The notes beneath the pieces are model-generated. The model saw nothing but the letters and a program-made list of their open reading frames with translations. It searched no databases and had not been told where the DNA came from. From Oikopleura dioica (taxonomy: Eukaryota > Animalia > Chordata), in the NCBI GenBank assembly GCA_907165135.1, contig OU015568.1:496001-560000 (forward strand): 64,000 nucleotides of DNA, given 5' to 3'. Position 1 is the first letter of the stretch. Each line of letters begins with the position of its first letter. Below, one piece after another: positions 2,711-31,093 of this stretch. A program made the position numbers and the translations under genes.

Positions 2711-2732
2711 TGACGTCATTAGGAGCGGAAAT
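2711..2732. promoter_or_regulatory. CRE palindrome (TGACGTCA) plus GCGGAAAT motif in a probable divergent promoter
   Basis: TGACGTCA at 2711-2718 between a minus-strand ORF starting about 2473 and the chromodomain ATG at 2957. Confidence 0.3.
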
Positions 2733-3667: not shown

Positions 3668-3811
3668 TAAAAGACCAATTAATAATTGTCAATTTTTTTT
3701 TTCTATTAACACGGTTACGATTATTATCTGTCCTATTGTTTCTTGCGAATATTTAAAGTTTGTCGATGTTCTTGGATTCCCTGATTATGCTTACTCCTGC
3801 TCTCTTTTTTC

Positions 3812-6267: not shown

Positions 6268-7010
6268 TTAGAAAAGTCTCTGTCGGCATTCTGTTTGCGG
6301 CGATGCATATTTTGTGATTACTTTCGCTTTTATATTTATATCACCGTTCCTGGACATGGGTTTCGGCGGTTGCTCTGCTCCACCCATCTTGTCAAACATT
6401 CTTTGTGGAAGAGATGATGGCAGTTTTTCCCTCTCGCCATTATCTCAGTGAAGTTCTGTAAGCAGATTGAACATTCCTTCTCGAGCTCTTCTTGTGTTTC
6501 AATAAACACGTCGACTAATCGGCCTTCCTGTGTATGTCGCCTAGTGCCATGAACAGCACGTAGCCTTTGCTCGTTGTACAGCGCTCTCCATGTTTCTTGA
6601 TTGTTCATTAACGGTTTTCTTTCTAGTTTTTCCGGTTTGAACAATTCCTATGTGGCGGTGGTAAAAATTGATGATCTCTCGGCTATAAGTCGATGAATAT
6701 AATCCTTAGTACTTATCTTTTCTCTTATATCCCTAAATGTATTCCTCCATGCGTGGATCATTTGGGTCCATAGTATCATCTCTTCGTAGAAACTCATCGA
6801 GAGTCACTTGATTCATTTGGGCATCGTGCATCAATTGATCTTTGATTTACGCTATTAATCTTCGTTAGTTTTTAGTCTACCTTGGCCCCGATCTTGTTGA
6901 GCATTGCTGTTCCTCCCTCGAGTATCATGTCCGATTCTTCCATATTCCTTTTTTTTTTAATTAATTTTTTTCCTAGGTTATTTTGTACCTGTTCATTATT
7001 TCTCTCCATT
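6268..7010 (-). CDS. RING-H2 E3 ligase with a candidate PIP box (5' end approximate)
   Basis: CSICLQNF...CHHLFHKECLTRW...CP, completed to CPECRQRLF* by a GA-AG intron at 6291-6349. An upstream exon carries QVTLDEFL (6787-6810). Confidence 0.8.
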
Positions 7011-7136
7011 CTGCAATGTTTTTTGTGTTAATCATTACCCAGGAAGAAAATGATAAATGAGCTCACGCTTAAATTACCTATTAAAATATCTCACGTTTTC
7101 AATTCGAGAAAACTCGAGCGTTCTATACAATGAAGG

Positions 7137-7478
7137 CAGGGTTGAACGTTGGGACTGGTCCACTCGGGCAAACCGGGCAAAAAATCGGGCGGGCGGGCAA
7201 ATCGGGCGGTGTAGGGCTCGATTTTTTGAGGTAAAAATCGGGCTAAGTCGGGCAATCGGGCAAAATCGGGGCCCGGGAAAATAGTCGGCGCCCGGAAGAA
7301 AAAATGGCATCTTATGGGACATAAATACTGAAATTTTCTTTAAGAACGACCGGTTTCGGTTCTCCATGAGTGCCCTTTTTCCTCGGGATACAAAATTGTC
7401 CTTCTTCTTCAATAAATTTTAATCGGGCGGGCAATCGGGCGGCCATATTCTAATTTTTTGCCCCAACGTTCCACCCTG
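7137..7478. mobile_element. 342-bp MITE with CAGGG termini and 7-bp TSD
   Basis: TIR CAGGGTTGAACGTTGGG / CCCAACGTTCCACCCTG. TSD ATGAAGG at 7130-7136 and 7479-7485. Internal (A)ATCGGGC repeats. Confidence 0.85.
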
Positions 7479-7501
7479 ATGAAGGTTTGCCTGAGCACAA
7501 A

Positions 7502-9514
7502 TTATCGGATTCGGTGTCTTAGCATCAAAATGTGTTTTGTTTCGCGAGTGAAATATAGTGGGAGGTTTTGATTTAGTGTCATTGCTTTTTTTCTTGTTTC
7601 CCCCAAAATCTACTCATGTTAAAATATTCGTTGGGGCTCTTGATTTCAACCGTCTTTTTGTCCATTTGATCACTCTGGTGTGTTCTTTGGAAAAATTCGC
7701 TACAGGCTTTTTGTGGTCGACCTTTCTTCGCATGTGTCATTATGTCTTCTATGTCTTTTCTTTGATTTTACGTGCCTTCTCTGTTTGGGTACTTTTGAAA
7801 ATCCCTTCCTTCAGATATTCCCCAACTTTCCAGTTTGGTTTTGAGATCTTCGTTGTTTGTAAATGGGCACAAATGATATTCTTCCTTCGATTTTGCAATC
7901 TTCGTTTTCGTTTCGCATGTGTAGGATACTAAACTCATTACTTTTTGTTGTAATTTGCTTCATAATTACTTATTGGGCTCTTTTTCCCCACTTGTCCATA
8001 TGCATATTTAACGTGATACTCGTGTTCCGCTGCTGGATTTTGGTAGTTATGCATTTTTGTTGTTGTTAGCTTCAGGGCATCCTCCATTGTCATTCCTGCA
8101 TTTCGTAGGAATGACCATAAATGCAGCCGTCCCTAATAACCTTTCTTATCGTTTTTCAACTCATTGTTTCCCAGTCAGCTACTTTTTTTTTTATATATTA
8201 GTACAGTACCATGTATTTTAATTTTCCATCCTTATCTAGTCCGTTGAACAAATTTCTTAAACAAGGTGGCATTGATGTTCTCTTCATGAATTCCAAATTG
8301 TCGTATGTGAGACCGTTCGTTTTTGCTTGAATTTCTTCCGGCTTTACATCTTCCATTATCGCTTTCAGGATAGGCACTTAATTATCGCGTTTGTGCTGTA
8401 TCTAATTACTTCGATAGTCACTAGCAAGAATTTCGGATTCTGTTTTGTGCGTCATATCGCTAAATTTGTTTTACCTAGTCTTTCTGTTTCATTGTACATC
8501 ATTGCGTCGTGCTTAACTGCGAATCCGTCTAACCAGCGATGGTTTTCTTTGTTCATAATACTTTTAACGTATTCTATCAACTCTTGTTCGGCAATATAGG
8601 CTTAAAAATTTATTACTTATACGTTCTGATGTTTACCTTTGCCTTGATGTAGAAAACAATCCCTCTGCGAGACAACAGTCTCTACTTCTGTCCACGGAAT
8701 GCGATACCATGTTTTAACGGTCACTGTTCTCATATTGGCACATTCTTTCAGTTTCTTGGCGAGGTCCGTTGTCAATTCCTCAGCCTTTACCTCGTCGATT
8801 CCTTTCGTTGCGTTCTTAATGAAATTCAATGATGGTTTTTTTTTGTAAATTACCTGCAGGAATTTTTTTTTTGCTTTTTCGCTCAGCAACGAATATCTAT
8901 ACTCGAACAATCTGAGCTCATTTTCTATAAACCAAGCCCGACGCACTGGATCTCGACACACTGCTATCTTTAAGGTCCAATGCGATACGTTATCATTGTT
9001 CCTTTCGTCTAGTGTGGGGATCAATCGCTCCAGTCCGATATATTTCACAAGTTTGTCGCGTAAAAATGATTCTTCTAACATCAGGGGTCGGTATCTGCGC
9101 AAGAAAGTCTCATTTTCGAGATTTCATCTTCGAGCTGGCTTTCCCCGCGCATCAATGCTTCCCTCAGCTTTGGTCATTTCTGGTTCGGCCCTTATCCGCC
9201 AACTCAGTTCTGTAGTCGCCGACCCCAGCCTAATAGCCGTTTTCTTATACTGGTCACAGTCTTTTGTTTGTGTCTATCTTTTCTATTCTCAATACTTGAG
9301 TGGGCATACTCATTATACCTTCGATGATACAAAGAGCCAAGTATCTTGCTCTTGTAATGGCTATTAATTTATCAAGATCGAAGTCAGTGTCCATTGGAAG
9401 TTTTGAATATATTCGGACTGGGAATCTTAACAATTCATCGTCGAGTATTTCCTCGTCCTTGCATTCGACTAGGCCAATTCCTCGATGTTCCCTTTTGTAT
9501 ATTTTCGGTGGCAT
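7502..9514 (-). CDS. PRIM2: DNA primase large subunit (p58/PriL), multi-exon (3' end approximate)
   Basis: DNVSHWTLKIAVC...AWFIENELRLFEYRY; SMPPCLRNL...LKYM|GRLHLWSFLRNAG; HEYHVKYAYG; SYTC...YHLCPF; QKACSEFF...SPNEYF. All four Fe-S Cys-equivalent motifs are present in order. Confidence 0.92.
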
Positions 9515-9740
9515 TCTAAATAATTTCGGTTAATTAGCTCCTTATCCATTTTTCTCTCTTTCTTGGTTATAAATCGAGCGGAGCGAGTCGGCGATTTTCT
9601 TCCTTTCAATGGATATGCAATTGTGTGAATGTTTTTGATTGCTGGTTGTCTCTACATTTGACATGCTTGTTTTTGGTTATTACTTATAGACTATAAGTTA
9701 TAGTTTCAATCTCAAATGCTTATCCCCGTCTTTAGCGATC

Positions 9741-10097
9741 CTAGATTCGACGTACACAGACCGGGCAGTAGTTACGTTCCATAAGCCATCGTTCTTTATT
9801 GGAAATCACAGTTTGCTTTTCTATATTTTATTGTTCATTTCCCGTTCCGATGCAGGCTCCATGATAGCGATGTTCACACATTTGTAATTGCACTCCGTCA
9901 GAATTAATTTCCTCTAGACAGATGGGGCAAAGGCTTCCTTGACTCTCTTGTTCAGTCCTTTCATATCTTTCCATTGTTCTCATTCTCTGTTCTACGCGAA
10001 CGTCAACCTGTATGCCGATGGTGTTCGTACTGTTGCCACTCTCGTTTTGTCTTTTATTGGCATTTTCTAGTGGTTGTCTATATTGATCAAAAAGCAA
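9741..10097 (-). CDS. RING-H2 E3 ligase (5' exons probably extend to about 10470)
   Basis: CPICLEE...CEHRYHGACI joined to ERWLMERNYCPVC by a GA-AG intron at 9794-9847. Confidence 0.85.
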
Positions 10098-10559
10098 TTA
10101 TTTTGTCGTGTAATAAGTCACAGCTATTTTTAATAAACCATTTTAGAACTGCCTTTCTGCTAATGATTGGCGTTGGACGAACTCTTCGTACATTTCCTCA
10201 TACACATTCATCCAATCTTCGTATTGGTCGGCCATGTTTCCATTTTGTGATCCTTTCCGTGATATATATCTATATTTATTTATATTATTTTATTTTTTTG
10301 CGTATTGGTATCACGGTCCTAACTCAGGCTCTTGAGCCCTGTTTTCCTCATTCATTGTTGGAGTTTGTCTTTCCTCTTCTTCGTTGTTTCCTTCGTTCTC
10401 CCTTTCATCGATTTCATTTTGACTCGCTGGAATGCTCCTATCCGTATCTCTCTCACTTGCATTCGACGACATTTCAATCTAAGAAATTGCCTTTTATTTT
10501 TGAACACTTGTGCTGTTATTTTATTTGCACATTTTCATTCGCCTTCTCCTTTTATTCAG

Positions 10560-11480
10560 AATTCATTCTTTTTATCGTTCTTCTCTCCGTTCTTTCGTTT
10601 CTCCTTCTATTTATTTTTTGATTCTGTCTATCTTTTTTCCTACCTCTTGTTCCTCCTTCTTATCAATTTTCCCCGCCATGAATGTTCCGTCCATCATCAA
10701 TACTTTCTGTTCACCTTCCAGCCCCGTTGTTATGAACGTTCCATCCATCAGCATATTTCCTTTCCTGATTTCTTCCCCTTCGTTGTCAGTCTTGTTCACA
10801 GCGGCGGTAAGATCGATGTTTCCCTTCGTCATTCAAAAATTATGGAATGATTTTTATCTACCTTCAATGTTCCTCCTAGGTGGAAGGTTCCATCCATCAT
10901 GAAGTTATCTGGTGTCTGTCTGAGCGTTGCTTCGCCGTTGGACAACGCCTGGAGGACTTTGAGGTCCGCGGTAGTCTTATCATTTTGTATTTTATTCATA
11001 GGTCTGCGTACCTCGATGGGGATGCTGCGATTTCCGGCTGTTGGAACGTTCTTTTTGTTCATGCTGTCAATAATCGTTTCTTATGTGTATTTTAAGTTAT
11101 TAAATATGTTGTGGGTTATTATTAATACCGGCGATGTGAACAGTGCAGAGGTGGGTTCCAAGTGGTTTTGTTCCTTCTTTATCATCGGAACTCTGCTGCA
11201 ACGCTTTCTCCTCCTTCAAGGTTTCGAACTTCTTTTGAAGCATGGTGACATCTCCTTCGCCTTGAGTTTTGACTACCATCTCCAAGGGTGCCTTTATTTT
11301 TTAATCATTTATTTTTTTTAGGTTTATACCTCCACTCTTATGGCTTTGTTGATGTCCGCTTCATTGCATTCCTTGAGGTCTCCTTTTTGCGTGAACATAG
11401 CATTGTATAATATTTGGGTCTATTTACCTGCGATGTGGATGGTGGCGAGGATGGAGCTGGGTGTCACCATTCCATTTTCT
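10560..11480 (-). CDS. Hypothetical protein with repeated MDGTF and T(I/V)HIA motifs
   Basis: Exons contain MMDGTF, LMDGTF, MMDGTF, LATIHIA and LCTVHIA, separated by short GT-AG introns. Confidence 0.5.
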
Positions 11481-11786
11481 CCGTCGACTATATTAATCTA
11501 TGTTTTCGTAATGTCGATTTACTTGTTACCTCGATTAGGGTGAGATGTTTTCGGAGCGTTGTTTTTGTCCTGTTTCCACATAACCGTCTTCTAAAACTGA
11601 ATAGTTGTTGACAGAAATCATGACCACTAATTTTCACAGGTGAGAATGAATATTAATTCTTTTATTCGATTATGCTTCGCGCTAACTCCAAAGCATCCTC
11701 AACTTTATCACGAACATATATTGTTTGTAATTCAAAGTCTCTTTTTTCCATTAGCATAATTATGTGTGTTATATTTATAGTTATTG

Positions 11787-12228
11787 CTAATGCTTCCTGA
11801 AGGTACTTATGATGGCTGCATATGGGCGTGCGTTTTCATTGACCATTTCAGTGAGATTTTCACTTAAAATTCCTTTTTTTTCTTTTTTTTTTCTTTTCCT
11901 ACCTGATACTTCCTTGGTTATTACTTGCAAGGTACTCATTGATTTGGGCACCATTCGTTTTGAATCTCCCCATAAAATTCTCGACCGTTGCGCGTCGCCC
12001 ACCTTAATTAATTCTGTTACCGTTTGATATTATTTCCTTACGCATAAATGCGGTTTCTGCGTCAATTCTGTATCTGTCGCCCTCTTCTACACACTCCTTC
12101 CTTGCGCGTACCAGAAAGATCGTCGCTTTGTCGATCATGTCGATTGCGGTCAAATATTTCAGCAGTATATCTTCTCCTCCTGTGGCGTGCCGAACTATTG
12201 TGCGTGCGCACATTAGTTCGAAATCCAT
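11787..12228 (-). CDS. Hypothetical protein
   Basis: ORFs 12004-12228 and 11787-12002 look like consecutive exons; no family recognised. Confidence 0.35.
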
Positions 12229-12642
12229 TCTAGAACTATTTTTATTAATTATTATTAATATTAATATTATTAATATTGTGTTTTTGTCGCAGAACTGTGG
12301 TGTTTGGAGTTGCTCTACCCCTAGACAGCGGGTTAAAGGTGCAGAACCGTCGCTTTAATTTGTTACTGTAGAAGAAAACAAAAGATGAATTGCTGGTCAT
12401 GGGTGCAGCAATTCAGCACTCGCTAAGGCTGCGGCAACTCCACACGCTACTGTAACTTCATGTTGATGGGTACGCCGGAATTTTAATCACAGGTCGAGTT
12501 AGGAACTATTGCGGTTAGCTGGAGTGTTTTTGACGTTTCATTTGCTTTCTCCTGGAAAGTTGTTTTAGTTAAAATGCACAAAAAAAAATGAAAAATAAGA
12601 GTGGGGGGGGGGAGGGTAATGGATGGATTTTTTATGGGAATA

Positions 12643-12999
12643 TTAGAAATCTGCCCGACACACGGCGCAGTTGTTGTTTTCTTTCAGCCACTGTCGAATA
12701 CAATTTCGATGGAAGATATGCGTGCAATTTGCCATTTGGCATCTCGTCGCGGTGAGCGATTCCAAGCAAATAGGACACAGTTCCTCGGTCGCCTCCTCAT
12801 CTGGTATGGCGATTAGTCGGTCGTTTATGTATTCTTCTCGCTGTATCTCGTCCCTATAAACGGTGGTCTTTTGTTTTATTATTAGCTTACAGGAAAATGT
12901 TTTCTGGGTCAACTTCGTCGGCGAAGTTGTAAACGGCATTCCACTGGTCCTCATTAATGAAGTAGTTGTTGATAAGATTAATTCTGAGTGAAGGGTCAA
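12643..12999 (-). CDS. RING-H2 E3 ligase, C-terminal part (5' exons probably to about 13420)
   Basis: CPICLESL...CTHIFHRNCIRQWLKENNNCAVCR, a complete C3H2C3 pattern. Confidence 0.9.
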   Translation of the reverse strand: MTLHSELILSTTTSLMRTSGMPFTTSPTKLTQKTFSCKLIIKQKTTVYRDEIQREEYINDRLIAIPDEEATEELCPICLESLTATRCQMANCTHIFHRNCIRQWLKENNNCAVCRADF

Positions 13000-13515
13000 T
13001 AATTATATGAGCTGATTTTATATTTATACTATCCTCTAAATTTCGCTTTCTAATTATTATGACCCTTTGTATTTCCTCCTGTTGATTAATTGGGTCAAAG
13101 AGGTCTCGGTTTTCGTTGCTCCGTTCGTTTTCTTCGGGTACTTCTTGGATCGTTTCGAATGCTAGGAGGTATTTTCAACTGTCCTCTATTTAGGTTAATC
13201 TTTAGCAATTTAGTTTCATCGTTTTCACTACCTTCTGGACCACGGTTTTCGGAAGTTAATTCTTGGACTACTTGGTTTTCTGCTTCAATGGCTGAGGATG
13301 ATTTTTTTTGTTAATGCTTTGTTCTTTCAGCCATTCCTGTATTTTGTTGCTGAAAGGTTTCGTCCATGTCGGCTGCGCCGTTGTTGTGAATTCGATTATC
13401 ATTTCGCGGAATAGTTGACATATCTCAATCTAAACTTAATGTTTTGAATTTTTCGTATTGCCGGTGTTAAGCATTTCATCTCTCATGTCGTGACCTTTGC
13501 CTTTTGTTACTCCTC

Positions 13516-14576
13516 TTATATATTATCTAAATGGTAGGCGACTGTTCCCATTCCTTCCACGCTATACATGAGAACAAGTTTGTCTTCCGCTGCGTTGATT
13601 GTCACATGATTCGGAATCTGCTCTGCGCTCGCGATGAACACCATTCGCCTTCATTCATTAGTTTTGCACACACCGTGTGATACCTGTTAGAATAGTTGTA
13701 TCGAAGTGTTCGATCGTTACTTGCCCGATTTGTTATAGCTGGAGCAGGGGTCTAAATTCGCAGTGCGAACTCGCTTTTTTGCGAAGCCGCTTAATTTAAA
13801 AAAAAATGGTTCGCTTTCGCACTAGGATTTCGGCTGATATTTTGACCCCTGACTGGTGTGTTCAGGAATGTGTAGTTTGTGCTTGAAAATTTAACTACTC
13901 TCGTTAGCTGATCGATTGTCAATTCTATCTTTCCATAGACATTTTCGAATCTATCGCATATCGTCAAAAGGGTTATTCCTTCTAACTCGACGGTGCAGCT
14001 AGCAATAGTTAGTTTATGAAGATTAAAATTTATTACTTGTACTCGGGTTCGGGCACGGTTTCTGGAATGTGTTGCAATTCGTACGACAGATGAATTCGCC
14101 GCTTCGATTTAAAGCCCAGAGCTAACTTCATCCATTCGCTTGGCTCCTGGATTCTTGGGTTGTTCATCTTAATAAACAGTCTAAAGCGGCTAGTATGCAT
14201 CAATTACCCTGGCAATGTATTCCGTCTGTAAAAATGGTCCATCTTGGTCGTAATCTATGCTGATAAGCACATCGTGGTAAATGTCCCCCCCGGATAGAAC
14301 TTGTTTTAACATGTTCGTTGATACTAAATAAAATTTTTTAATGTCTACCCAATAGCATCTCTCACCTGCCCATTTTTTTTCTATTTGGCATTCGTATTCG
14401 TGAAATGCTTCTCGATTGATTGTCAGTATTGTCATCTTGTTTCCTGATCGCGTTCCGATTCTGTGAATATGCAATTCTTTGGAAGTTACCATCAAGTTGC
14501 AGTAGCCAAAATCCGACTCGATGGCAAAGGCCATTTTTCTCAGCCTATTCGCGTCAATAAGGTATGCCTTGAACAT
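13516..14576 (-). CDS. PCNA: Highly divergent full-length PCNA paralogue (PCNA-a)
   Basis: N-terminus MFKAYL...LTINREAFHEYEC; middle VPEPEY|NCTVELEG...ICDRF...VKFSS; C-terminus HVTINAAEDKLVLMYSVEGMGTVAYHL. All collinear with PCNA. Confidence 0.75.
13745..13851. mobile_element. 107-bp mini-MITE (CAGGGGTC TIR) inside PCNA-a coding sequence
   Basis: CAGGGGTCTAAA ... TTTTGACCCCTG. Degenerate 7-bp TSD (minus strand CACCAGT / CTCCAGC). Confidence 0.6.
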
Positions 14577-14699
14577 TCACGTTTCTTAATAAATTTTTTG
14601 GGTAGTGTTTGATTCTTCGGCGCTGTTCGTCGTCCACCGGCAACAGCGCCATCACTTAATCTGACCTATCAGATTTACTTGAGACCGAATAGTAAAAAA

Positions 14700-16285
14700 T
14701 TTGTAGCTCAATTTTGAGCGAGAGATATGGAAATTTGAGTCAAGTAAGGTCAGGCTGAACAGTTATTCGATTTTTACTGTAGCTTCATCGAGGTCGACGT
14801 TCACGGTGAGTTCCTTGTTATCTCGTTCGTACTTTTTCGCACTCACTTATTTAAGCGTAAGTATTAATAAAATCTTATTATATTTACCGTTGATGGTAAT
14901 TCTGAGTGATCCTGTTGACGCAACTCTTTCCTCAACACTGTCCTTCGTTAAATCTATTGTTTCGGTGGCGTCTATTTTTAAATTTTACTTATTCTATTCT
15001 ATAAATTATTATAAACTTACCCACTGGTCGTTCTTGCGAGTCGTAAATTGTAATTGTCTCCGAGAAATTGTCACGGTCGCAAAAATTTCCCGAATTTCCC
15101 CGATAAGGGCGGAAGACAGACTGACTTACATCTATAATATCAATTTTATGTTCGTGTTAATTTTTATGTTATACCTAGGTCAGCACTGCCAAACGCATAT
15201 GGATCGTCATTAGTTCCAGCTGCTTTCTTCTTGGCTCGAACTCCACCATTGATGTCCATTCTTCCTACTATGTTTGCGCGATATAAAAATGATTAATTTT
15301 TTTGTTTATACCTTCATTTATGTCCCAGGTGGAATGAGTGCACTTTTTACCAATTGCTCGACTGGCCAAATGGGTCGATGTTTTCGGTGGAGGTGGAACA
15401 TCAGAGTCCACTGCGATTGGAGCCGATGCTTTCTTCTTAGTGAGAAGATTTCGAAGTTCCTCGGAGCCTATCTTGATGTGTTTGTTTGCTCTTTTTTTCT
15501 GATGAAAATTGAGTACACCGCTTGAATGCGGTTGTTCTCTATTGGGCTCATCATCCGAAGGTGGCTCTATTATTTTTAAGTGCACTCTATAATTATTTTC
15601 TACTTACGTGACGGCGGCACTAAATCAGCTAGTACGATACTCGTTCTTTTCGATTTCGTCGCTGCAGCCAAAATCGAATTACTGGAAGAAGGTCCTTCAT
15701 CGGAATCATCGGCAAACCGAACCTCAAAACTACCAAAGGGAACACGTTTCTCCATTATGTTGCAGGCCTTCGTAGGATTTCAGTCTAATATAGGTAATAC
15801 GTAAGGTATCATTAATCTTTAAAGACTGGGGTTGATTCGTACAGATCAAACTGCTTTTCTTGCTTTTTCTGCAGGATTTTCTTAAATAAATGATTATGTT
15901 CGTACATTGAATGAATGAAACCTTTGATTTCAAGATCGCCAGCTTCACCTCGCACCTTCTCCAGAAGTTCCTTCATACCGTCGAAAGCATCAAGGTACTC
16001 TTTTACGGGGTGGCCATCATCCCGTACCAAATACTCAATTTCGCTATGATATTAACTAAATTGAGGGGGCATTTTAATTTTCGGTACCTTTCACTTACAC
16101 GGGCCATTCCGGCAACGTATGAAGGGACAAAACGGCCAATGTGCGTCATATACCGTCGTCGAGCCTGGAATTCCTGACGATAAGTATCTTTGAGTTTTGT
16201 TAATTTTCACGTATTGTGAAAGAGCAAAAGTTGTAGTACCGATTGTCAGAATTTTTGTTGCGAGTTGATCTTTTATGGAATGCAA
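14700..16285 (-). CDS. Hypothetical multi-exon gene(s), partly disordered
   Basis: Consecutive short minus-strand ORFs (16091-16285, 15812-16030, 15268-15585) with intron-like gaps; no family recognised. Confidence 0.35.
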
Positions 16286-16577
16286 GCAATTATTTTAAGA
16301 GTTCAATTTTAACATAAACAATTATATAAGCTACTTTTTATTCCTTTCCTTTATCGATTTGATTGTCGGTGGCAGTCGAAGCCGAATGGAGATTTTTGTA
16401 ATACTCGAGAAATAAAAATCAAAATCGTCCGCACAGATTTGGGCATCCTTACTGCCCAAAATTTTTAGGGCAAGTTCAACGCGCTCCATCAGTCTTAATA
16501 ATATAACACTGAATTTACATACTCGTGACAGTGAAATTTATAATTATTTTTATCCATGGCGCCCTAAAGATTTTCAG

Positions 16578-18051
16578 TCATTCATCCGTTTCCATCTGTC
16601 GTGACTCAACCCACTGATTTATCTCTTCATCCTGGAACTCACTGTCAAAATCATCCTCATTTGGGCGACTAGGTGGTGTAACTTTTTGCGCGTCGGGTTT
16701 TTTAGGTGTCGATGCAGCGTGTGGTGCACAAGTTATTGCTTGATCGTTTTGCTGCGAAGAGGAAGCAGCTTTAATCTCTTCTTGATCAGAGATTGGAAGT
16801 ATACGGTCAGATACTTGTGAGCTTGCATCTTGTGATCGTTGACTTTTTCCGAAGTTCATAAGCGATATTCTTATGATTATTTTATAGTTAAACAAAACAA
16901 GTGGCGCTTCGAATAAAACAGAGATTATGAAATCCGTTACTGTGAACTTCGCCATTTTCAACTGCGTACGCTGAATATTGGCTGTCGCTTGCGCCCTCTT
17001 CGTTTGCAGATCGGTAGTACCTTGTATATCTTTCCAGAGTAGATGGCACATTTTTCGGATCTACCAGCATACAATGGCCCTCTAAGTTATGCTCAACAAG
17101 AGTGACTAATTATAATATTTGTAGAGTTGAGCACGAAACTGGTATTTTGAGCTCTTCCATCTCGCCAAATTGTGCAAATAACTAAAATCATCTAAGATCA
17201 TTAACCCAAATCTTACCTCATATCGACCAATGTTGGCTTTGAAGGCCAAAGCTGCACCATCATCTATTTTAAGATGTAGTGACTCTGCGCCTGTTAACAA
17301 TTCCGTCAACATCTTGAGTATACTTAAAAGATTTTACAAGACAAACAAAAATTAAATTTACTATAAACTGCAGAAACTTCGACCTTCGACCGGATTCTCA
17401 ATTTTTACCGCGTCATCATCAAACCAAGTGACCCTCTTCTTGCTGCTGTTTGTCTTGGTTGTTGAAAATTCCACCTTTCCGTTAGTCATAACGTGGATCG
17501 TCAGGTATTCGCCAACTATCAAAAATTGTGAAAAGTTCTTATAACTGTATACCTGTTGCCAAGTGGGAAGCGGTTCGGAAGAGCAAATCGTTGTCAATAG
17601 ACACGATGCAGTCGTTATCATAAAAGTTGCTATCCGGAGCTTGTGAATTAAAAACCTCCTTCGAATTCACCCAGTGCTCGACAAAATATTCCTTCGTATT
17701 GAACTTGATGTACAGTTTGTCGCCGATAGCTGCTGATAGATTGAAACTAATATGAGTTCCTGGAGGGGCAGAACAAATCGTGTCGACAACATCAAATCGA
17801 TCAACAACTAGATAGAATAAGTTTACAGAGAAAATAAGTCATTACCTTGAACTACACGGTGGACGTTGTCATAATTTTGATAAACGACGGTAGTCGAAGT
17901 TGGGATTGTAGACGACAAAAACTGCATCTTCATCACCTGTTCCGATGATAGTAACTTTTTTCCTGAAGCAAAGGCGGAGATCCAGAGCCAAATTATCAAC
18001 AGCTCTGAATATCAGCGCGAGTGAAGGCGAAGCTTCAACAACAAAATTCAT
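16578..18051 (-). CDS. Tentative divergent sliding-clamp-like (Rad9/PCNA fold) gene(s) with acidic Ser/Gln tail
   Basis: MNFVVEASPSLALIFRAVDNL...FVVYNPNFDY resembles a clamp N-terminus; LLTGAESLHLKID and FTVTDFIISVLFEAPLVL resemble clamp C-termini. Resemblance by eye only. Confidence 0.35.
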
Positions 18052-18213
18052 TTCTAAAATAAAAGGAAAAGCAAAATAGGAGATGCAAAATTTTCAGTTA
18101 ACAGATAAAATTTATAAGCACGAGTATAAAAGTTTTTAGCAAAACATATCTTCTTCAAGTTTTGAAAGACGGCTAAAAAGTTTTTAGTAAAAGCATTACA
18201 GAGGAAAAAAAAT

Positions 18214-18619
18214 TTACCGCTGAATCTGTTCCCTCACATCGTTCTTAGCATCTGGAGAAAGTCCGATTCTTAGCTCTCTGTCACCGTTGAAATGACAGGT
18301 ATCCACACGAACCAAAAGATGTCTCCCCAAGGTGTACGCCTCGATTTTGATCCTAAATGATGAAGAAAAAAAAAACAAAGGACACTCACATCTGATCCAT
18401 AAGTGAGAGCATAATGTTATACACATGGATGTGTTCTTGAACGGAGTCGACACGAGCAAGACGCTCCAAAAAAAATTCTTTACAGGTAGCAGCAGTGATT
18501 CTTAAATTATGATATGAAAAGAAAAGCAAAACTGGGAGAAAACCTTCCAACGTTTGCTGTGAGAGAAGACAATGATGGCACCATCGTCGTTTGGGGCATT
18601 CTAAAATCACACAGAACAT
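18214..18619 (-). CDS. Small hypothetical protein with a Cys/His motif (CPKRRWCHHC)
   Basis: Three short exons starting 20 bp after the PRIM1 stop. Confidence 0.4.
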
Positions 18620-18638
18620 GACTAGAGAACTTCAATTT

Positions 18639-20156
18639 TTAAGTACGCTTGACAAATAAATAACGCTATCCTCAACTTTTTTTTGCAAACTGGAGACATT
18701 AAAGACAGTAGGAATGGATTCAATAAATGACCAATTCGCCGAAGGTGCATCAAAAGGCAATACAACTAAACCATGGCATTTGCAAAAAAAAAAAATAAAA
18801 ATAAACCTTTTTGCGAGTGATCGTGGATGCTGAACGGGAGACGAATGAGATGGGAATTACTAAGTGTAACTTGCTCGTCGATTTCTGGCAGCATTATTTT
18901 TAATTTTAATGCCCGAATACTATTAAAATCCATCGTGTCTCCTGATTGAAGAACACCTTCTATCAGCTTCCATTTTTCGGATTCAGCTTTGGCAGCCGTT
19001 ACTTCCTTAACCAGATGAGCTTTTTGATCGTCGAGTAAGCACGTAAAGTCGAGTAATCGAGAAAGAGTGCTCAAATCCGAAAGAATCCCTAAAAAAAATT
19101 AAACGGATCACAAATAGCATATTCAAACCTTGTTCGGCCAGTAATTCAAGCCAAAGAGGGTCAATAATATCAAGTGCTCGTGAATAAAACGTATGATATA
19201 GCTTGGATCCATAATAAGGCATGTTTTTTTTTGATAGATATGCAAGAACGGTTCTTCGGCGAGACTCGGAATTGGCCATGAACTCGTCGTCAAGAACCCA
19301 GGCGTGAATCCCGCGCGAACCACTGTATACTATTTACATAAAGAGAAACTGAGTCATTCTAAATACCCCAAAATATTTTCGAAAATCCAAAGTCGTTGCG
19401 CAGAGTCTGGTCAATTAGACGCGCCGCCACCTGTAGAAATTTCCAACATTTTTTGCAAGTGGAGCGGCCGCTACAGCACCGACGGAAAGTGTAGTCAGTT
19501 ATGTCAATATCGATATAGAACTAACAAATAAATATAATAAAAACCAAATATAAATGTACCTCTTTTGCAATAAAGGGATCATGAGTAACGCTACGCCACT
19601 TCGACGACGTTGCAAAGAATCCCCCAATATCGATTCGTGTGATCAGGGATGTAGAAATGATGGATATAAATTTGGAAAAATCGGGGAGCACTTCGTTTCG
19701 TCGGCGAATTGTACGATTGTGTAATTTCGTGCAAAAACTAGAACTTAAGCTTATTTTATGCTCGCTCCGCTCGAAATATATATAAGAGGAAATATTACCT
19801 TAAGTCACGTTGATTGAAGTTAAATTTGCCATTACGCGTTACTAAGTCCTTCACGAATCTTCGGGGAAATACAGACTCGTAGTAATTTTTATAAGGACAA
19901 GAACGGAGGGACAAGGATGAAGCAGCTTCAGTTAGGAGGACGATCTCGTCGCGATGATAGTTTCCAGTCACAGAAGAGCTAAAAATGCGAAAAGTAGGAA
20001 AAAGTGAATAATTATTAAATCCGTTTTAAGAGTGATCGCGTTATGATAAAAGATGAAATGATAAAAATTTATTGTTGTCATACCTTTGAGGTCTCGACAG
20101 ATTGTCATTGTCCCTAATGAGGGTGGAAATATTGATTCGGAAGTCAGTTTGAACAT
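18639..20156 (-). CDS. PRIM1: DNA primase small catalytic subunit (p49/PriS, AEP), multi-exon (start uncertain)
   Basis: YYESVFP; RIDIGG; KE|FYIDIDITDYTFRRCCSG...CKKCWKFL...IDQTLRNDFGF; W|VYSGSRGIHAWV; PEIDEQVT..SHLIRLPFSIH. Catalytic DxD, SGxRGxH and third Asp motifs are intact. Confidence 0.93.
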
Positions 20157-20461
20157 ACTTATCAACACAGACGGATCGCTTTATCAACGGAAAAATGAAT
20201 CACCGATGAATTTCAAATTTCCATCCCTTTCCTAGTATCTTTTAATAAGTTTTTGTTATTTTTTGGTTTTCTTGAAGGTAGTGATCGTCGAGGCAACAAT
20301 ATACTGCGAGAACAAGAACGGATGATAAGCTTGATGGGTAGGAAATGCTTTCTGTGCAGATTCGCGCCTTTAACCATTATTTGAAGTTCATCGTATGGTC
20401 CATCAGCAATGATTAGCATCAGAATCTTTGCGCGTTTAATATCCTCATAAATTGATAGCAA
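20090..20461 (-). CDS. Possible Rad1/clamp-like N-terminal fragment
   Basis: ADGPYDELQIMVKG followed by an exon reading DKYVQTDFRINISTLI, resembling the Rad1 FRINL motif; no C-terminal half seen. Confidence 0.2.
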
Positions 20462-21197
20462 CGAAGAAGAGAAAACTAAAAACAGCAGTATTTTCCTATT
20501 AATGAATTAAAAAACCCATCAAATCATGAATACGGCGAGTGGTATTCACATAGGAACATGTCGAGCTTCGCTTGAAATGAATAATTTTATCCTTGTTTTT
20601 CGAAGGCGGAAAAGGGGCAACGCGGAAAAAATTATGACAGAAAGTAAAGCGAACAGCATTTTTGGTAAGATACTCGCTTGCAATCATATGTGCCAACCAA
20701 GCAGGCTTGTAAAACTTCACACATGCCATTCTATAAGTAAAAAAAAATACCACTCAGTCGCTAGCTATTCGTCTAATTATCTCTTTTACTACGAGTAATA
20801 ATGGGTGAACGTCTATTCCCAGTCTCGCTGCCACCGGAAGGAGTACCCGACGAAGATGTTGAGGGTGCTTGATCATCAGCAACAGGTTTCTAAGAGAAAT
20901 ATTAACTTTTAAAGGGAATGATAAAAACCTGATGTCCGAGTCGAAATGAGGCGACTTTAGATGGAAAATGATCAGTTATCGAGGGAATATTGTTGACCAC
21001 CAACCTTAAAAATCACAACAAGAGAAAATTAAAAATAGTACCATTTTTTTTGAGAAGAAGAAATTCGACGGCCAGTTTCTTCATTTTGGGTTGTAGCGGG
21101 CTTATTTTTAGACAAAGTTTTGATCTGCTGCTGAAGATCTTCGATTTGGAGTCTTTGTTGATCGCAGCAATCAACAAGATCTTTAAACACATATATA

Positions 21198-21512
21198 TTA
21201 CGATGAAGGTAACCGACAACTCACCGAAAACCGTGCGAAGAGCATCTGGGGCCCAGCGAATTTGTAGAAATTGTGACTATAATGAACATCGTAACGACAC
21301 TCAGAAGCTATTTGAACCTTTTTGAGTCGCTTTCGACATTGAGGACATTTCAAATACGATGACGCGCCAGCAATTTCATCAATGCACTTAGAGCATACCA
21401 TGATTGAGCAATTGGGACAGCACGAAATCGAATTCAGCTCCCTCCCTTCTGCAATAACGCAGCAATCCAGATCGTTTTTAAGCCTGCTGCCGAGACTTTC
21501 GTAATTGCTCAT
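21198..21512 (-). CDS. RING-HC-like zinc finger protein (may continue to about 20.5 kb)
   Basis: LDCC...CCPNC..VCSKC...LKCPQCRKRL. Confidence 0.7.
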   Translation of the reverse strand: MSNYESLGSRLKNDLDCCVIAEGRELNSISCCPNCSIMVCSKCIDEIAGASSYLKCPQCRKRLKKVQIASECRYDVHYSHNFYKFAGPQMLFARFSVSCRLPSS

Positions 21513-21595
21513 TGAAAGAATCTGAAGGTAAAATTTTCAATAGTGTAAAACTGTATACGACGAATAACGTTGATATACAAATCATGCGCAGATAA

Positions 21596-22521
21596 CTAAA
21601 GTCTAGGGGCAATAAAGGTCTTGAGAGCGGAGTACTCATCGATCTGGAAGACAACGGCAATTGGCAGCTCTTCCACTATATGAATGTCCACCCGATTAGC
21701 AAGAGGGGCGATTTTCAAGAGACGGCGGAAATAGCTAAAAATAGTATTTTGAAGGTACTCAAAATCAAACCATGTCGAATATGTTTGCTGCAATTGCTTG
21801 ACAACGTCAATGTTAATCGAATCACTTGGAAATCGGATATCGGAATAATTTGCCACCTTAATCCGTCCGCTTTCACAGTTACCATCAGACTCGAAAAGAA
21901 TGAAGTCACTTTTGACAGATATCGTTACTGTATCCCCAACAGTTGAAAACTGTTTGCAGACATCGACGAAACACGAGGTTGGCATTGACACTTTGCAACT
22001 ATATAATATTAATAAGAATAATAAACAAATAACGCAAACCTCACGTCAAATATGGGGATTTCAACTTCATCGCGATCAAAGTCAATAAGATGAAGATCAA
22101 ATGTAGCTGAAGGACCGCCATTCTAAATTATTATTTAAGAAAAATTATCAAACCAAATAAACTACCGTGCAGAATGTATGAAGTGAAATATCGTCAGAAT
22201 TGTCATCGCATTTCAAAATAAGGGAGTAATCCTTGTTCACATGCTTGAGGGCTTCGTGAAAAGATTTCGCTTTGACTAAAAATACCGTAGAGAACACTAG
22301 AGAAAATAAAAACCTCCGAGTTTTAATTCCTTGTCGGCCTGAAATCGTCTAAAGCCCCTTGTACGGAAAACAACTTGAACAAGAACACTATTCGAATTGT
22401 CAGAAGATTGAAGAAAAAGGCCATCTGCGCAAACTGTCCACAAGCAGTCATGCATGAGATCGTTAATAAAATCAACCAAAATCTTCATGGGATAGGCCGA
22501 GTCAAATTCGCATTCAAACAT
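21596..22521 (-). CDS. PCNA: PCNA paralogue b
   Basis: MFECEF...GLFLQSSDNSNSVLVQV...GFRRFQADKELKLG; MSMPTSCFVDVCKQFSTVGDTVTISV; PIAVVFQIDEYSALKTFIAPRL. Confidence 0.92.
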
Positions 22522-22703
22522 ATATGCAATCTAAACAAAGAACGGTTACGCATAGTAAAATAAAACGGTTTATCAATAATAAAAGACACCCGATAGACAA
22601 AGTGTCGATAAAAAGCCCTTATCGGATTAGGGAATGTTAAAAAATGAAGAGGAGTGAAAATAAAGGTCTGGGGGAAAAACGGTAGGCAAAGAGGGATAGC
22701 CAT

Positions 22704-23643
22704 TCATTCAGAGAGTGGAGCAAGGTAAGTGCTGAGAAGAGCGCCACAGGGTAAAACTTGACAGAGTCGCATCAAGGACCCCGGACCAAAAGAAACGGTG
22801 ACAATGGTAGAAGCAGCGGCAGCAAAATATGTTGAGACCATGGCGCTGAAGAGAACCCTTATTTTTATGCAATAGCGACGACTTACCGAAGGTCATGACA
22901 AACCTCGAAATCCTCATTGCTGTGAATGAGAATTGAGTGTCCAGGTGCAAAGGGTACAATGCGGGTAGTCAAATCGATGAACCCTGTTGATTGTCCAGTG
23001 GGGTTGGACGTCTGAAACTTGACGCAATTTTCGGTCACAATAAGCTTGCAGGTACTCGAATGTTGGAGAAGCTGAGCAAGGATGATGTAAAAATTCGCAG
23101 AAGGCATCGTCAAATTACAACTAAAAATCATAAATGAAGTTATAATATTTACTACCGAAAATCGGGTATGAATGGAAGCCAAGGTCGAGGTGGCAGAGGA
23201 TTATATGCCAGGAATGCATGGTGACGTTCATTGTTCATCTAGAAACTATTAACACGAAACATTCACAGAAAACATACTTGGCAGTGAAGAAAGACGGACA
23301 AATCGTCAGTAAGCCCGGCCAGGGAAAATGTTACCTCAGAATCATGAGGAAGAGCCAGTAAAATGTCACGCAGTCTCGTCGAATTAACTTAACAAAGTAA
23401 TTTTTTTTTTAACAGTGAATGTGCTCTACTGTAGTAGTGAAATGGCTCGGAGAGCTGGAAAGTCGCAAACGAAGCGACAGGAACGTAGACCTCGGTCAAA
23501 ACGGAGGAAGTGGAGTTAGGAGAGCGCCAAGACGCCCCATCAACAGCAATAAACCAGTCGATATCATCCGGGTAGAATGACATATCACCAAGAAGTGAGA
23601 GAATTTGAAATGAGGACTTGAAACGAGCATGAAAAAACACCAT
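22704..23643 (-). CDS. PCNA: Divergent PCNA paralogue c
   Basis: MVFFHARF...IDWFIAVDGASW...VLTEVYVPVASFATF; FSCNLTMPSANFYII...VKFQTS; C-terminus IVTVSF...LSTYLAPLSE*. Confidence 0.82.
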
Positions 23644-23785
23644 CCCAAAGACGAATCAAGCGAGAGCAATTCTAAACAATAACGAGGAATACGTTAGAGG
23701 GGACAGCTTAATTTTGTCCTTGACAAAAAGAGCAAAATTAAAGAAAGCGATAGAGATATAATATAAAGGGAATCGAATGAACAGT

Positions 23786-24744
23786 TCAGTCGTCATCTTC
23801 GACCTTGGGGGGGAGGAAAAATTTAATGTGTCCAAAATTTTGAATATTATAATGAAGGGAGAGGGGAACATCAACACCAAGTTGAAGAGTCGCATCTTTG
23901 GAGAGACAAACGGCCTTAGTGAAGATAGGGAAGTACCTGAAGAATATAGATACAATAATTCTTGGTAAACTAACCGCATAGCGAAGGTTAACTCCACAAG
24001 TGATAGCGTATCAATAGTCAGACGGGAAAGACGATCTTTCGCGTCTGAAGAAGCCATAGAAAAAACAAATTCACCAGAACCCAAATATCCACGGGATTGG
24101 AAGGCGATATTAGAGGTCGACACGGCAATTTTAAGCTCGTCCCCAAAATTCGCAAGGGTCTTAATGGCAGCCTGGAAATCGACGGAAGACATCGTAACAG
24201 TAGTGCTAAATAAGATAATAAAAATAAATCATCCTCCACTAACGAGTAATCCTTGTCGATGATGGTGTGCTGGTCGATATCCAGATCCATAAGCTTTATT
24301 TCGAAATAGGCATTATTGTTGTCATTCTGAAGGATATAAATAAGTCATAAATCTTTTGTCGGAATAAGAAAAAAAAAATAAAACTAACCCGAACAAAAGT
24401 CACGTTGAGGACGTCAGGATTTTCCTCCGCGGAGAGACGAATGGTATCGTCGTTTCGTGCGGTTTGAAGTAATTTGTTGAGACGAACACAATTTACTAAA
24501 GAAAAATAAATATAAACATATGGAATTAAGTCATACCTCCAAGCGCAAGATTACGATCACAGCGAAATGATGAAAAACCATTACGACGAAGAACCAATTG
24601 GACAAGAGAACAATTAGAAGCATCAACAGATTGGCATGATATACCTTCGTATGATATATCGAAAATAGCTTGATCGACAAAAGCGGTCAGGCAATCGATA
24701 CATCTTTTGAGTGTTTCCGCTTTCCTGAAACTACACTCGAACAT
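23786..24744 (-). CDS. PCNA: PCNA paralogue d (most canonical)
   Basis: MFECSF...QSVDASNCSLVQLVLRRNGFSSFRCDRNLALG; MSSVDFQAAIKTLANFGD; FGHIKFFLPPKVEDDD*. Confidence 0.95.
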
Positions 24745-25016
24745 GCAATCTAAATAAAGGCACATTAACACAGAAGAGAGTAGCAATACAATAGAAGAAA
24801 AGTTAAAGAGGGATATAATCGATGGGAGACGAAATGTCAAAAGAAAGGTTATTTTCGGAAGGGATACGGGACAGAAACGGGTACGAAGATAGGGGCCAAG
24901 CGGCAGGACGAATACGGTTACCAATGCAAGAAGTGTGCCAATGATGAGTATCACGGTAGAGATTAGAATTGTGGCGACCAAAAAAATTGACTTCTATAAA
25001 TGAATATAAAAAAAAA

Positions 25017-25394
25017 TTAAATAAGACTGTAAATACCTTGGAAATAAGCAGTTACGAAATTAACGAACAGCTCAAGCGTACCAAGAAAATAAGTTGAGCC
25101 GGGAGACCAAACGCGACGAGCAGGAAAAGCTGTAAAAACCGAAGGAATCATTGAAGGGGAGCGAAACCAGAGCATCGCGAAAAAATGATAATTTAGAGGG
25201 GGGTCCGAATTCTCAGTAGAATGAGGGCGAAATACATAAGCACCAAAGTAAGGACCTTTAAGAATCGCAGAGAGCTGATCGCGAGTGATGTTATCAATTA
25301 AAACAAATTTAATAAAAGATCGACGATTAGCTGCAAGCAAAAGATTTGCATCGTGAAGTTGAATAAATGATTCGAATAAAAGAGGCGATTCCAT
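25017..25394 (-). CDS. Hypothetical 125-aa protein
   Basis: Uninterrupted ORF between the transposase and PCNA-d, in the same orientation. Confidence 0.55.
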   Translation of the reverse strand: MESPLLFESFIQLHDANLLLAANRRSFIKFVLIDNITRDQLSAILKGPYFGAYVFRPHSTENSDPPLNYHFFAMLWFRSPSMIPSVFTAFPARRVWSPGSTYFLGTLELFVNFVTAYFQGIYSLI

Positions 25395-25529
25395 CGTGCT
25401 TAAAATCTTCGGTTATACGATAAAAATATGGATGAGTAATATGTGCAGTGTACATCATCAAGATATAATATAAGCGACACAATGCTAAATAAAGAAATAA
25501 AAGACAAGTCAGCAGAACAAGAAACAAAA

Positions 25530-28500
25530 CTATTTCTTATTGCGAGCGGATCGTCGAAGGGGGATGATGGCTTCGCCACAAGGCGGATCAGCAGGGGATG
25601 GACACTGAATATTCGAAAAAAAAAATTATAGAAAGAAATACCTCGGGAGAGATGGGGGAGGTACCAGAAGGAGTGTTCGAAGCAACAGCCAACTTCGACC
25701 GTTCAGACGAACGAGAAGACGGGTTAGATCGCGATGATTTAGTAGGCTAAATATATTTATAAAAGATAAAAAAATAAAAATACCTGAGCAGGTGGAACGG
25801 ACGAAGAATCTTTTTTCTTGGCAACGATTTTAGATTTAGTTTTGGAAACTTTGGAGGATTTTTTAGGATTCTTTTTTGGGGGAGCTTTCGATTTGGAACG
25901 CGGCTGTCGAGAAGAAGACCGTCGTTCAGCAGCAATCAGACCCAATTCTAATTCTTCATCGGCGGTGAGCTGCGACACAGGGATACCGGCAGCTTCTTCC
26001 TCGGCACGCGTCTTGTTAAGAGCTGCAACTTCGGCGAGCTGATGACGAAGCAGAAGCTCAGGTTTCATAGGGCGAGTAGACTTGCGAGTAAATACACCCA
26101 TCATAGACGTGACAGATATATTTTTCGCCGCCTCCGACGCAATTTGAGCGCTCCTCATAAACTGATGTTCATCCTCCGTCCGTGACGGCTTCTTAGAAGA
26201 AGTCTTCGTTACCTTTGAAATACAGATACAATGAAAAAGATTGTAAAAACCTTGGGTTGAGAGGAATTGGCGCTAGAGGACAAAGGACGCTCATCAACTG
26301 AAGAAATAACACGTGGGTTCTTCGTAGTTACATGCTGAAATTTATGACATTAAAAATTATTTCCAAATTATTACCGGAGGACGAGGCCGACCATTTTCAT
26401 CCAAGCGAACAGATTTGTACTTGCGTTTAAGAGGGGACAAAACACGATTAATGGACCCGGGGGAGGGCTGCTCAGAATGACCCAAGGATTGAGACGCAGA
26501 AGAAGAGAGGCAGGCCTAAAGAATTAATAAATAAACAAAACAACTCAACTACTTGAGAAAAAGACGTAGAGGGGCGTGATGAATTCGTCGTGTCAGTTTT
26601 TTTCAAAGAAGATCGACCACGAGCGGGAACAGGTAGAGACGAAGGCGAATCATTTTCAGAAGCCGTACGAGAAAGGGCTTCGACCATAAATCGAGCGGGA
26701 CCAACTCGACCATCAGCCGATGCAGAAGGAACCTGTGAGAAAGCAACATCTGGTAAATTAGACATGGACGAAGGGCCAGGAAGAGAAGGAGGGTTGGAAT
26801 CGGGAGCTGCTTGATGTTGAGCGGATGACGCATCTAATATACAGAAAAAAAAATATTAATAATTAATATACCAAGATGGAGATCATCCATTGTGTCACTA
26901 AGTTGTGATAAAGACTGCTGCACTGGATTAGAAGTTGAAACAATGGCAGGAGCGGAAGTTGCCACGGGCATCGATGGAGAAACAGAAACAGGTGTCATGT
27001 TTGAGCCGTGACAGCTCTGACGAATAGGAGACTGCGGAGTAGTAATTGCGGCGCCCTCCGCGAAAACAGCGCCCCCGCTTGAGGGCATCGGCTCATTATT
27101 GGAACGTGGCTCGGGCGTAACAGAGGCGGCCGCAGCAACAGGACAGAGAGGGGGAGAAATATGACAATGGTCAGAATGTAGTCCGGAAGAATCACGGGGA
27201 GAGATACGACCGTGTGAAGTCACAGACTCAGCAACACGCTGAGGCGGTGGAGGCGAGATATTGCATACAGATGAAGATGGAATAATACTGGCGCCAATAT
27301 TACCGGAAGCGTTAGTGGCAAGATCAATCTCAGAAACCGAGTGCCGAAACTGGGAGTCCAAATTGTTGGACGCGGTTGGAATTGGAATCTGCTGAAGATT
27401 CCAACCATCAGCATCATCGCGGTAATGATCTTCGGTGAGAAGCGCATCGGCGTCAGTTTCTTCAGCCACGGGAGCGACAAAAGTAGCATTCGAGTCAGTC
27501 GGAATACGAATATCCTCATCTGGCAACGCCCCGTCAACCGCGTTATCCTCCATCTCATCATCAGAATAAATAGGATCATCGTTAGAAACAGCTGCAACAA
27601 GACCAGCGTCGAGACCGTGACTGTCAGCCATCAACTGAGCGAGTCGTTCACGACGAAGACGGCGCGCGGCGATAGCGGCGAACCGTTTGCATTCTCGCAT
27701 CTATAAATTAATGGGAAAGTAAGTAAAACAAAATACCTTGTACGTATTCAGCATAAATTCCATAATATCGAGAAAATGCTCGGTCGGAAGCGGCTCGTGT
27801 TCAGGAACGATAGGGATTTTGTCACAGAGATCAATAACCTGCCGCATGTGAAGAACGTTCGCTTCGTGATGTTCAGGATCGCACCAAGGCTCAACGAACT
27901 TGCCTTCCATATATTCACGGCCATTATCATTCATGAAGTTGTTATAAATCTCCACATCTTTCCGGAAAGAGAGTTGCCGCTACGAAATAATGAAAGAAGA
28001 AAAATATAAAATTACCCGTCCATGGCGCTTGACGTACGTCCAATTTAAGGCAGAGTGAATAGACTCTGCCGGATTGGTATGAAGGGACAATGGTATTCCA
28101 CTGCATTTTTGGAGCTGAATCAGTGGCCACAAGTGCCAACGCTTACCCCACTTATGCCTAAGCACCCGCATCGCGAAGTTCTTGATAAATCTCGCCAGTC
28201 TACGTCCAAATAGAGGAGTACGAGCGACAACCGAGTAGAAGTAGAGGAGAAGTCCATTAGTGAGATCTTCACGCATTAATTGCTAAAAAAATTAAAAAGA
28301 AAACAAAGGGAAAACTTACGGCATTCTTAAGCACCCAGCAGACGAGACGAATAGGAGCAGCGGCCTTATTTCCAAACATATTCTTAAGATTCCGGAAGAG
28401 GTTCCGTTCGCAGTGGATCGAACAAAGGAAGGTAGAGACTTGAACATTCTTCGATGAGAGAGCGGACTCGAAGCTAAATATAAATAAGAAGAAATAAACG

Positions 28501-30983: not shown

Positions 30984-31093
30984 TTATCCCTCTAAATGTA
31001 AATGGAAATCAAGGAGGAGAGTACATGTAAAAAACAACATGGATGTAGGAACAAAAGGAGGATTGGTACTGGTAAGAAGAGGGAAAATAGAAA

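Follow-up and report, generated by a model that had tools for sequence, protein, structure and literature searches.

A strong A/T strand-skew inversion in a 38-kb block of Oikopleura dioica DNA with a predicted Mutator-type transposase, primase and clamp genes

Related elements and replication-associated skew

During replicative transposition of phage Mu, copying is primed at the transposase-cut ends and runs inward with host replication proteins. It is a long-standing question whether Mutator elements are duplicated by true replication or by gap repair. MULEs without long terminal repeats exist, and primase, clamp, RING and E2 genes are found in large DNA viruses. Mutator-family elements form circles, and TnGBS elements replicate as circles (passages of PMC3942029). 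Pack-MULEs are seldom longer than 10 kb, and their cargo consists mostly of gene fragments (passages of PMC11162782 and PMC6431247). DNA transposons are generally regarded as restricted in size; in combination with a suitable integrase, a primase has been predicted to allow much larger elements (PMC6431247, in part). At chromosomal origins, the skew jump amounts to about 8% in yeast and human (PMC3590768, in part), and in yeast the skew changes abruptly at the origin and weakens further away from it (PMC3459929, in part).

Here, we analysed a window of 64,000 nucleotides from Oikopleura dioica (contig OU015568.1, positions 496,001 to 560,000), in which a skewed block of about 38 kb with about 29 gene models was compared with these systems. 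It resembles Mutator-like elements (MULE/MuDR, Pack-MULE) in its predicted DDE core with CxxH and in the long insertion between the second D and the E, but it has replication genes and a strand switch, no terminal repeats were found in it, and its size and gene content differ from those given for Pack-MULEs in the passages cited above. TnGBS and the Mycoplasma ICEs are also large elements with a Mutator-type transposase and replication functions; according to parts of PMC3942029, however, they are bacterial and conjugative and use a plasmid-type replicase, whereas the block is from an animal, contains introns and carries primase and clamp genes, with no replicase detected. Polinton/Maverick elements and Teratorn share with the block that they are large animal DNA elements with a DDE enzyme and replication genes (PMC6431247, in part), but the block has a MULE-type transposase, and no DNA polymerase, capsid or packaging genes were detected. 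Yeast and human origins and termini show a transcription-independent sign change as well; their origin jump of about 8% decays outward in the sources cited in part above, whereas the block swings by about 110 points and its skew rises away from the switch. Phage Mu, whose host and gene set are unrelated, is alike by analogy, in the inward copying from transposase-cut ends.

We found no published description of such an element in the open literature; supplements and subscription papers on larvacean transposons may bear on its novelty. The main text of two O. dioica genome papers does not mention 'skew', nor 'Maverick' or 'MULE' where these terms were looked for; the relevant parts of PMC6431247 mention neither PCNA nor Oikopleura.

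Strand-skew inversion at neutral sites

The plus strand of the window is T-rich over about 1.2-16 kb, A-rich over 18-39.4 kb and about even in the right flank. The left arm (1170-13000, plus strand) is T-rich and flat, with a neutral AT skew of -0.36 to -0.53 by bin, and the right arm (22000-39400, plus strand) is A-rich, its neutral AT skew of +0.37 rising to +0.61. Between them lies a transition zone (13000-22000, no strand) with the neutral zero crossing, a partial step and the whole-sequence minimum at 17480-17520, where cumulative skew reaches its minima for AT (17509), GC (17480) and purines (17520). The cumulative curve forms a V with a depth of 5656, the maximum in 5000 permutations of 100-bp blocks being 1848. 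As a whole, the block (1170-39400, no strand) has its right edge at about 39.4 kb, and its left edge may lie further left: a T/C-rich patch at 339-530 with an AT skew of -0.30, flanked by unskewed stretches, suggests that the left arm may extend in this direction.

A preliminary description of this DNA had reported that the plus strand is T/C-rich on the left and A/G-rich on the right regardless of coding strand, and the two 60-mers quoted for it are exact (T37/A5 at 10561, A26/T5 at 25081). Cumulative skew and introns, which it had proposed to plot along with third codon positions, bear out the inversion, and so do four-fold sites. Neutral sites were taken from gene models predicted here, with their introns and four-fold sites. 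Within minus-strand genes, introns counted on the plus strand have A/T of 253/469 to the left of 17.5 kb and 706/322 to the right (p 2e-44), and four-fold sites have 141/283 and 789/292, respectively (p 2e-45). Plus-strand genes agree on both sides: the chromodomain gene on the left (2957-3667, plus strand) is T-rich on its coding strand (four-fold A11/T46), and the genes at 33-37.5 kb are A-rich (four-fold A108/T25). Since the skew follows position on either coding strand at these sites, transcription is no explanation for it. The bias lies chiefly in A versus T; GC skew is weak (introns p 0.37, four-fold sites p 0.009), the A-rich strand being slightly G-rich.

The inversion is thus real and very strong, its swing at four-fold sites across the switch reaching about 110 points of AT skew. 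With homopolymer runs collapsed, AT skew is still -0.195 on the left and +0.168 on the right, and 0.006 in the flank at 40.4-64 kb, whose genes have four-fold skews without a consistent sign; GC content is 0.40 in the block and 0.394 in the flank. Insertions within the block show little or no AT skew (+0.01, +0.04 and +0.11) and in a fourth case -0.11. One of them, a small inverted-repeat insertion at 7137-7478 (no strand) with a 7-bp flanking duplication, has a skew of +0.01, compared with -0.26 and -0.38 beside it. As these insertions are nearly unskewed, the skew of the block is older than they are. A gene model at 7028-7446 sits in the small insertion and was left out of binned skew and shape fits, though not out of the strand-split counts. 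The mutation bias has reached protein composition: Lys makes up 0.5-1.1% of residues in four minus-strand genes of the right arm, with their T-rich coding strand, compared with 3-11% in most genes of the left arm.

Several further features were observed in the right flank. Arms of 169 nt in inverted orientation (40131-40299 and 45133-45301) delimit nested elements at 40131-45301, with a DDE_Tnp_1_7 (piggyBac-like) gene at 43.0-44.7 kb between them. Further along are an 18-bp coding tandem repeat (49627-50124), a gene of the photolyase/cryptochrome family (51996-54000) that is broken by an inverted-repeat element near 53.6 kb, an exact 300-nt duplicate at 54073 and 61236, and a CAP plus thrombospondin-repeat gene (62805-63998).

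The shape of the switch departs in part from the sharp inflection that had been expected: the inversion holds at neutral sites, but a clean step does not, being replaced by a partial step on a gradient that grows outward. Neutral AT skew crosses zero at 16.6 kb (95% interval 15.6-17.7 kb). For introns and four-fold sites together, the model that fits best combines a step near 17.2 kb with an outward-rising slope, and it is 49 AIC units better than a pure step and 7.8 better than a sigmoid; a linear gradient is worse by 44-64 (logit-linear 44). About half of the skew amplitude in this combined fit is the local step. Four-fold sites alone and unannotated sites alone prefer a sigmoid with a scale of 2.1-2.5 kb, which for four-fold sites has an advantage of 32 AIC units over the step, while for run-collapsed introns a pure step fits as well as any model. 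The outward-rising slope was found in all seven site classes fitted. On the right arm, skew climbs from 22 kb outward (slope p 8e-4) and is greatest at the right end, whereas no slope is seen on the left arm over 1.2-13 kb (p 0.96). Four-fold skew is near zero in the genes at the switch. The switch is off centre, the apparent left edge being 16 kb away and the right edge 22 kb.

An assembly join or a recent inversion, either of which would have undone the claim, is disfavoured as the cause. One contig of a different sample (X3) spans 16394-17921 and bridges the switch, so that the switch is no assembly join; a recent inversion is argued against by the pure step fitting worse by 49 AIC units and by genes running head-to-tail across the switch. 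Sample X1, which may be the source, has a contig of 21,196 nt that ends at 35008, with its start extrapolated to near 13.8 kb. Sample X2 has no contig over 16,747-19,126, but we do not take this for a deletion, as X2 has 0.96 of the words of 14-23.9 kb and the contig comparison filters its records.

Gene content and ends of the block

We predicted 29 gene models in the block, 25 of which are on the minus strand, head-to-tail across the switch. They carry many short host-type introns, about half of them are without an assigned family, and the largest unmodelled gap within 1.2-39.4 kb is 2.0 kb. The Pfam scan comprised 263 fragments and 148 of 213 further ones (411 in total), with most plus-strand frames of 1-33 kb outside it.

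The largest gene is a predicted MULE-type DDE transposase (25530-30983, minus strand; 1622-codon model P0001), with the regions of the first D at 28754, the second D at 28541 and the E at 28072, and a CxxH at 28424. It keeps D462, D533, C558xxH and E665, namely the DDE triad with the C/DxxH after the second D known from Mutator/MULE. Its spacing from second D to E is 132 residues, which agrees by length only with the long helical insertion of 99-138 aa in Mutator/MULE (passages of PMC3942029), helicity having been modelled for the first 60 residues. Atlas gave 0.96 to a PF10551 cluster, and the best family hits agree in ten of ten cases, whereas Pfam itself returned no MULE match for P0001. 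The modelled core is RNase H-like (pLDDT 70.5) and lends modest support; best Foldseek matches were integrase cores (E 4e-4 to 1e-3, TM 0.3-0.4), and Z values of 7-8 in VIA to resolvase, Argonaute and intasome are not above background. Taken by its transposase, the block would belong to a variant of the Mutator superfamily.

Relatives of this transposase fall into ten clusters, and the named ones are all from O. dioica. The frame at 28.3-28.8 kb has one homologue, an O. dioica protein whose exons are about 100% identical to the window. P0002 and P0003 are 36% and 27% identical to P0001, the family of P0004 is a close relative at 88-90% identity, and P0005 and P0015 carry the label MULE transposase. 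For a gene without assigned family at 24803-25394 (minus strand), P0002 contains a relative in fusion behind its transposase; the order of the two genes is therefore shared. Upstream of the transposase, two short genes (31094-32787, minus strand) are 28% identical to each other, the one at 31094-31793 being 27% identical to the pre-catalytic region of the transposase; they are possible helper or DNA-binding paralogues. No skew is seen in the transposase gene of a distant relative, in locus L002 (four-fold -0.04). L002 begins with tandem repeats of about 56 bp (1-420) and has a divergent frame at 951-1442 upstream of the transposase, without strong skew. Lys-rich tails in P0002, P0003, P0014 and P0015 suggest that their coding strands are not T-rich.

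Replication genes also lie on the minus strand. The DNA primase large subunit was assigned by Pfam at 7579-9514, its start not being fixed, and the small subunit, with DxD and SGxRGxH motifs, at 18647-19832, a model extension to 18136 being uncertain. Pfam also identified PCNA gene 1 (21596-22521), the divergent PCNA gene 2 (22704-23583) and PCNA gene 3 (23786-24744). A possible fourth clamp-like gene at 13791-14576 (minus strand) is weak, with a beta clamp match at E 0.023 and, in a comparison among the 39 models of the window, a match at E 6e-6; its single-sequence fold reached a pLDDT of only 34.5. RING finger genes were found by Pfam at 6336-6608, 9831-10097 and 12643-12954, all on the minus strand, and an E2 ubiquitin-conjugating-like gene at 33369-33940 on the plus strand. 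The 411 fragments gave no Pfam match to a polymerase, helicase, initiator, capsid or packaging ATPase, which for short exons is a weak negative, and none to a protein-primed family B polymerase. The search for PCNA homologues returned nothing at E 1e-20, and that for the primase returned only P0020, a model of the same locus. Close relatives of the block were found neither in viral contigs nor in phages or metagenome contigs; one search for relatives yielded three short, distant loci without primase or PCNA.

Comparison with two other samples gave 38 listed differences, with 19 further rows outside the listing, and 22 of the 38 are coding; 15 synonymous against 7 non-synonymous changes point to purifying selection. 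Purine transitions are in excess on the A-rich strand, at 24 of 29, but not beyond what neutral-site composition would give (p 0.08 against 0.67), and we do not take them as a sign of ongoing bias. Two RNA runs placed 37 and 8 partial reads on 8-27.9 kb. Reads of two RNA runs match just 35 nt (24269-24303), with unrelated sequence on both sides, and probably represent adapter or index rather than expression. A presumed RNA contig set did not match the host flank either.

The ends of the block are not fixed. No terminal inverted repeats were found between 1-3 kb and 37-41 kb, though the left end may lie outside the window; no second full copy and no duplicated or inverted arms were seen in the window and the contig comparison, and no target duplication, expected at 8-11 bp for MULEs, was found, nor an empty-site joint among the contig rows listed. 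At 39194-39249 lies a 56-nt sequence, X1 and X2 contigs both breaking at 39223, which indicates that it is repeated elsewhere. A GC-rich hairpin follows within 39314-39360, and one X3 contig shares this stretch and then diverges. Both are possible terminal motifs, and the divergence after 39360 hints at a related end elsewhere. Contig depth, which is no measure of copy number, is 82-106 in the block and 125-155 in unique flank for X1, about 100 and 60-72 for X2, and mostly 7-10 (17-24 at 33-38 kb) and about 19 for X3. At 34983-39223, X1 depth is 106, compared with 82 in the rest of the block, and X3 is also higher around 33-38 kb. The block is presumed to be mobile.

Proposed copying from the ends and alternative explanations

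A giant Mutator-like element is the likely identity of the block, and the A/T skew is likely a trace of the element's own copying. With a swing more than ten times the origin value of yeast and human, it was probably copied on its own terms, apart from the chromosome, for a long time; the skew is confined to the block and lost by the flank at 40.4-64 kb. Our main reading, to which we give a probability of roughly 0.45, is that copying starts at both ends of the element and meets near 17 kb, the switch being the meeting zone. The transposase would cut at the element ends, and the free 3' ends would prime synthesis inward, be it in replicative transposition, in long gap repair from the sister chromatid or in a circle with its joined ends as the origin. 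In each of these cases forks would run in the same directions, and host polymerases would make use of the primase and clamps of the element. Leading or exposed strands are T-rich in bacteria and humans, and A is inserted opposite abasic sites; the plus strand on the left and the minus strand on the right would be the exposed or leading-sequence strand drifting to T. Forks would meet near 17 kb, which would make the switch a meeting zone and not an origin. Copying from the ends is favoured because the lowest skew is found near the switch and the highest at the right end, whereas origin skew decays with distance, and because primase and clamps, with no detected initiator or helicase, would suit synthesis from cut 3' ends. 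O. dioica is without canonical NHEJ (PMC11067885, in part), and this may make it more probable that a cut element is replicated or repaired from a template. Against copying from the ends stand the local step that makes up about half of the amplitude, the run-collapsed introns that fit a pure step equally, the flat left arm, the off-centre switch, the unfixed ends, for which neither a terminal repeat nor a target duplication, an empty site or another complete copy was found, the relatives, L002 being unskewed and four others having Lys-rich tails, and the predicted nature of the gene models.

A replication-type cause independent of transcription, as proposed in the preliminary description, is supported at neutral sites, while its central origin is less favoured, skew being weakest beside the switch and rising outward. 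That origin, or an initiation zone, near 17-18 kb, from which the same element would be copied bidirectionally with the leading strand A-rich, either in an excised circle or during local amplification, is possible but less likely. Leading strands are A-rich in yeasts (PMC3590768 and PMC3459929, both in part), which would put an origin at the switch; they are also C-rich there, whereas the A-rich strand of the block is slightly G-rich, and human skew is of the T+G type (PMC3459929, in part), so that composition or polarity alone cannot settle the direction of copying. The partial step near 17.2 kb and the element's own primase and clamps suit an origin, but the sharp jump decaying with distance that marks one is replaced by a partial jump with skew rising outward, four-fold sites favour the broad sigmoid, and the 411 fragments revealed no initiator or helicase. 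The site that had been suggested, at 18050-18210 (no strand), is AT-rich indeed, its GC content of 25% being within the lowest 0.5% of 161-bp windows in the block, and its 17-mer direct repeat is present at 18128 and 18176; only one other near-perfect pair of 17-mers less than 150 bp apart occurs in the block. It is, however, not wholly intergenic, holding a predicted intron end, a stop codon and a short gap: a predicted intron of 45 nt has the second copy at its 3' end, and the first overlaps the predicted stop. The site is the most AT-rich stretch near the centre and is within 1 kb of the step, which counts against copying from the ends, but it lies to the right of the 95% interval of the neutral zero crossing. 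We regard it as an unusual candidate, not a supported origin.

Other histories are less probable. Strand displacement from both ends of a linear replicon, the other mechanism previously suggested, is disfavoured in its pure form: it would produce a linear gradient, a shape with a poorer fit, and the 411 fragments gave no match to a protein-primed polymerase, with no unmodelled gap above 2.0 kb in 1.2-39.4 kb. Its idea of both ends lives on in the proposed copying from transposase-cut ends. That the block is what remains of a nuclear DNA virus or of a linear replicon copied by strand displacement (Polinton- or Teratorn-like, with the MULE as integrase or passenger) is improbable: skew is highest at the ends and the primase, clamp, RING and E2 genes are of types found in large DNA viruses, but polymerase, helicase, capsid and packaging ATPase had no match in the 411 fragments, no relative was found in viral contigs, and introns are short, many and host-type. 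Equally improbable is an old fusion or inversion that joined two pieces each copied in one direction, with the join blurred later. The host genome is heavily rearranged (PMC11067885, in part), and the step component and the unequal arms fit such a join; the head-to-tail order of 25 of 29 models across the switch, the near-zero four-fold skew there, both sides fading towards the middle, and the lack of duplicated or inverted arms do not. Least of all do we expect an ordinary cluster of host genes at a chromosomal origin or terminus that is highly efficient and has long been fixed. Host-like introns and GC content, purifying selection and the absence of detected ends would agree with it, yet the swing exceeds the yeast and human value more than tenfold, skew is abruptly lost at 39.4 kb, insertions inside are unskewed, and a transposase lies at the core of the block.

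Copying from the ends remains the reading that we prefer, and a broader proposal built on it is made tentatively, with the odds somewhat against it: a new class of giant animal DNA transposon, Mutator-type, with its own primase and several clamps, in which host polymerases would copy tens of kilobases from transposase-cut ends, with such frequency and over such a time that two bacterial-style replichores arose. In about 38 kb, the block unites a putative Mutator transposase, primase and clamps with a strong copying signature, and it is an example of how mutation bias alters protein make-up along a single element. As the animal can be cultured, direct mapping of fork direction would be feasible. 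If the proposal is true, phage Mu and TnGBS would have a eukaryotic counterpart in this element, one fitted to a host that lacks canonical end joining.
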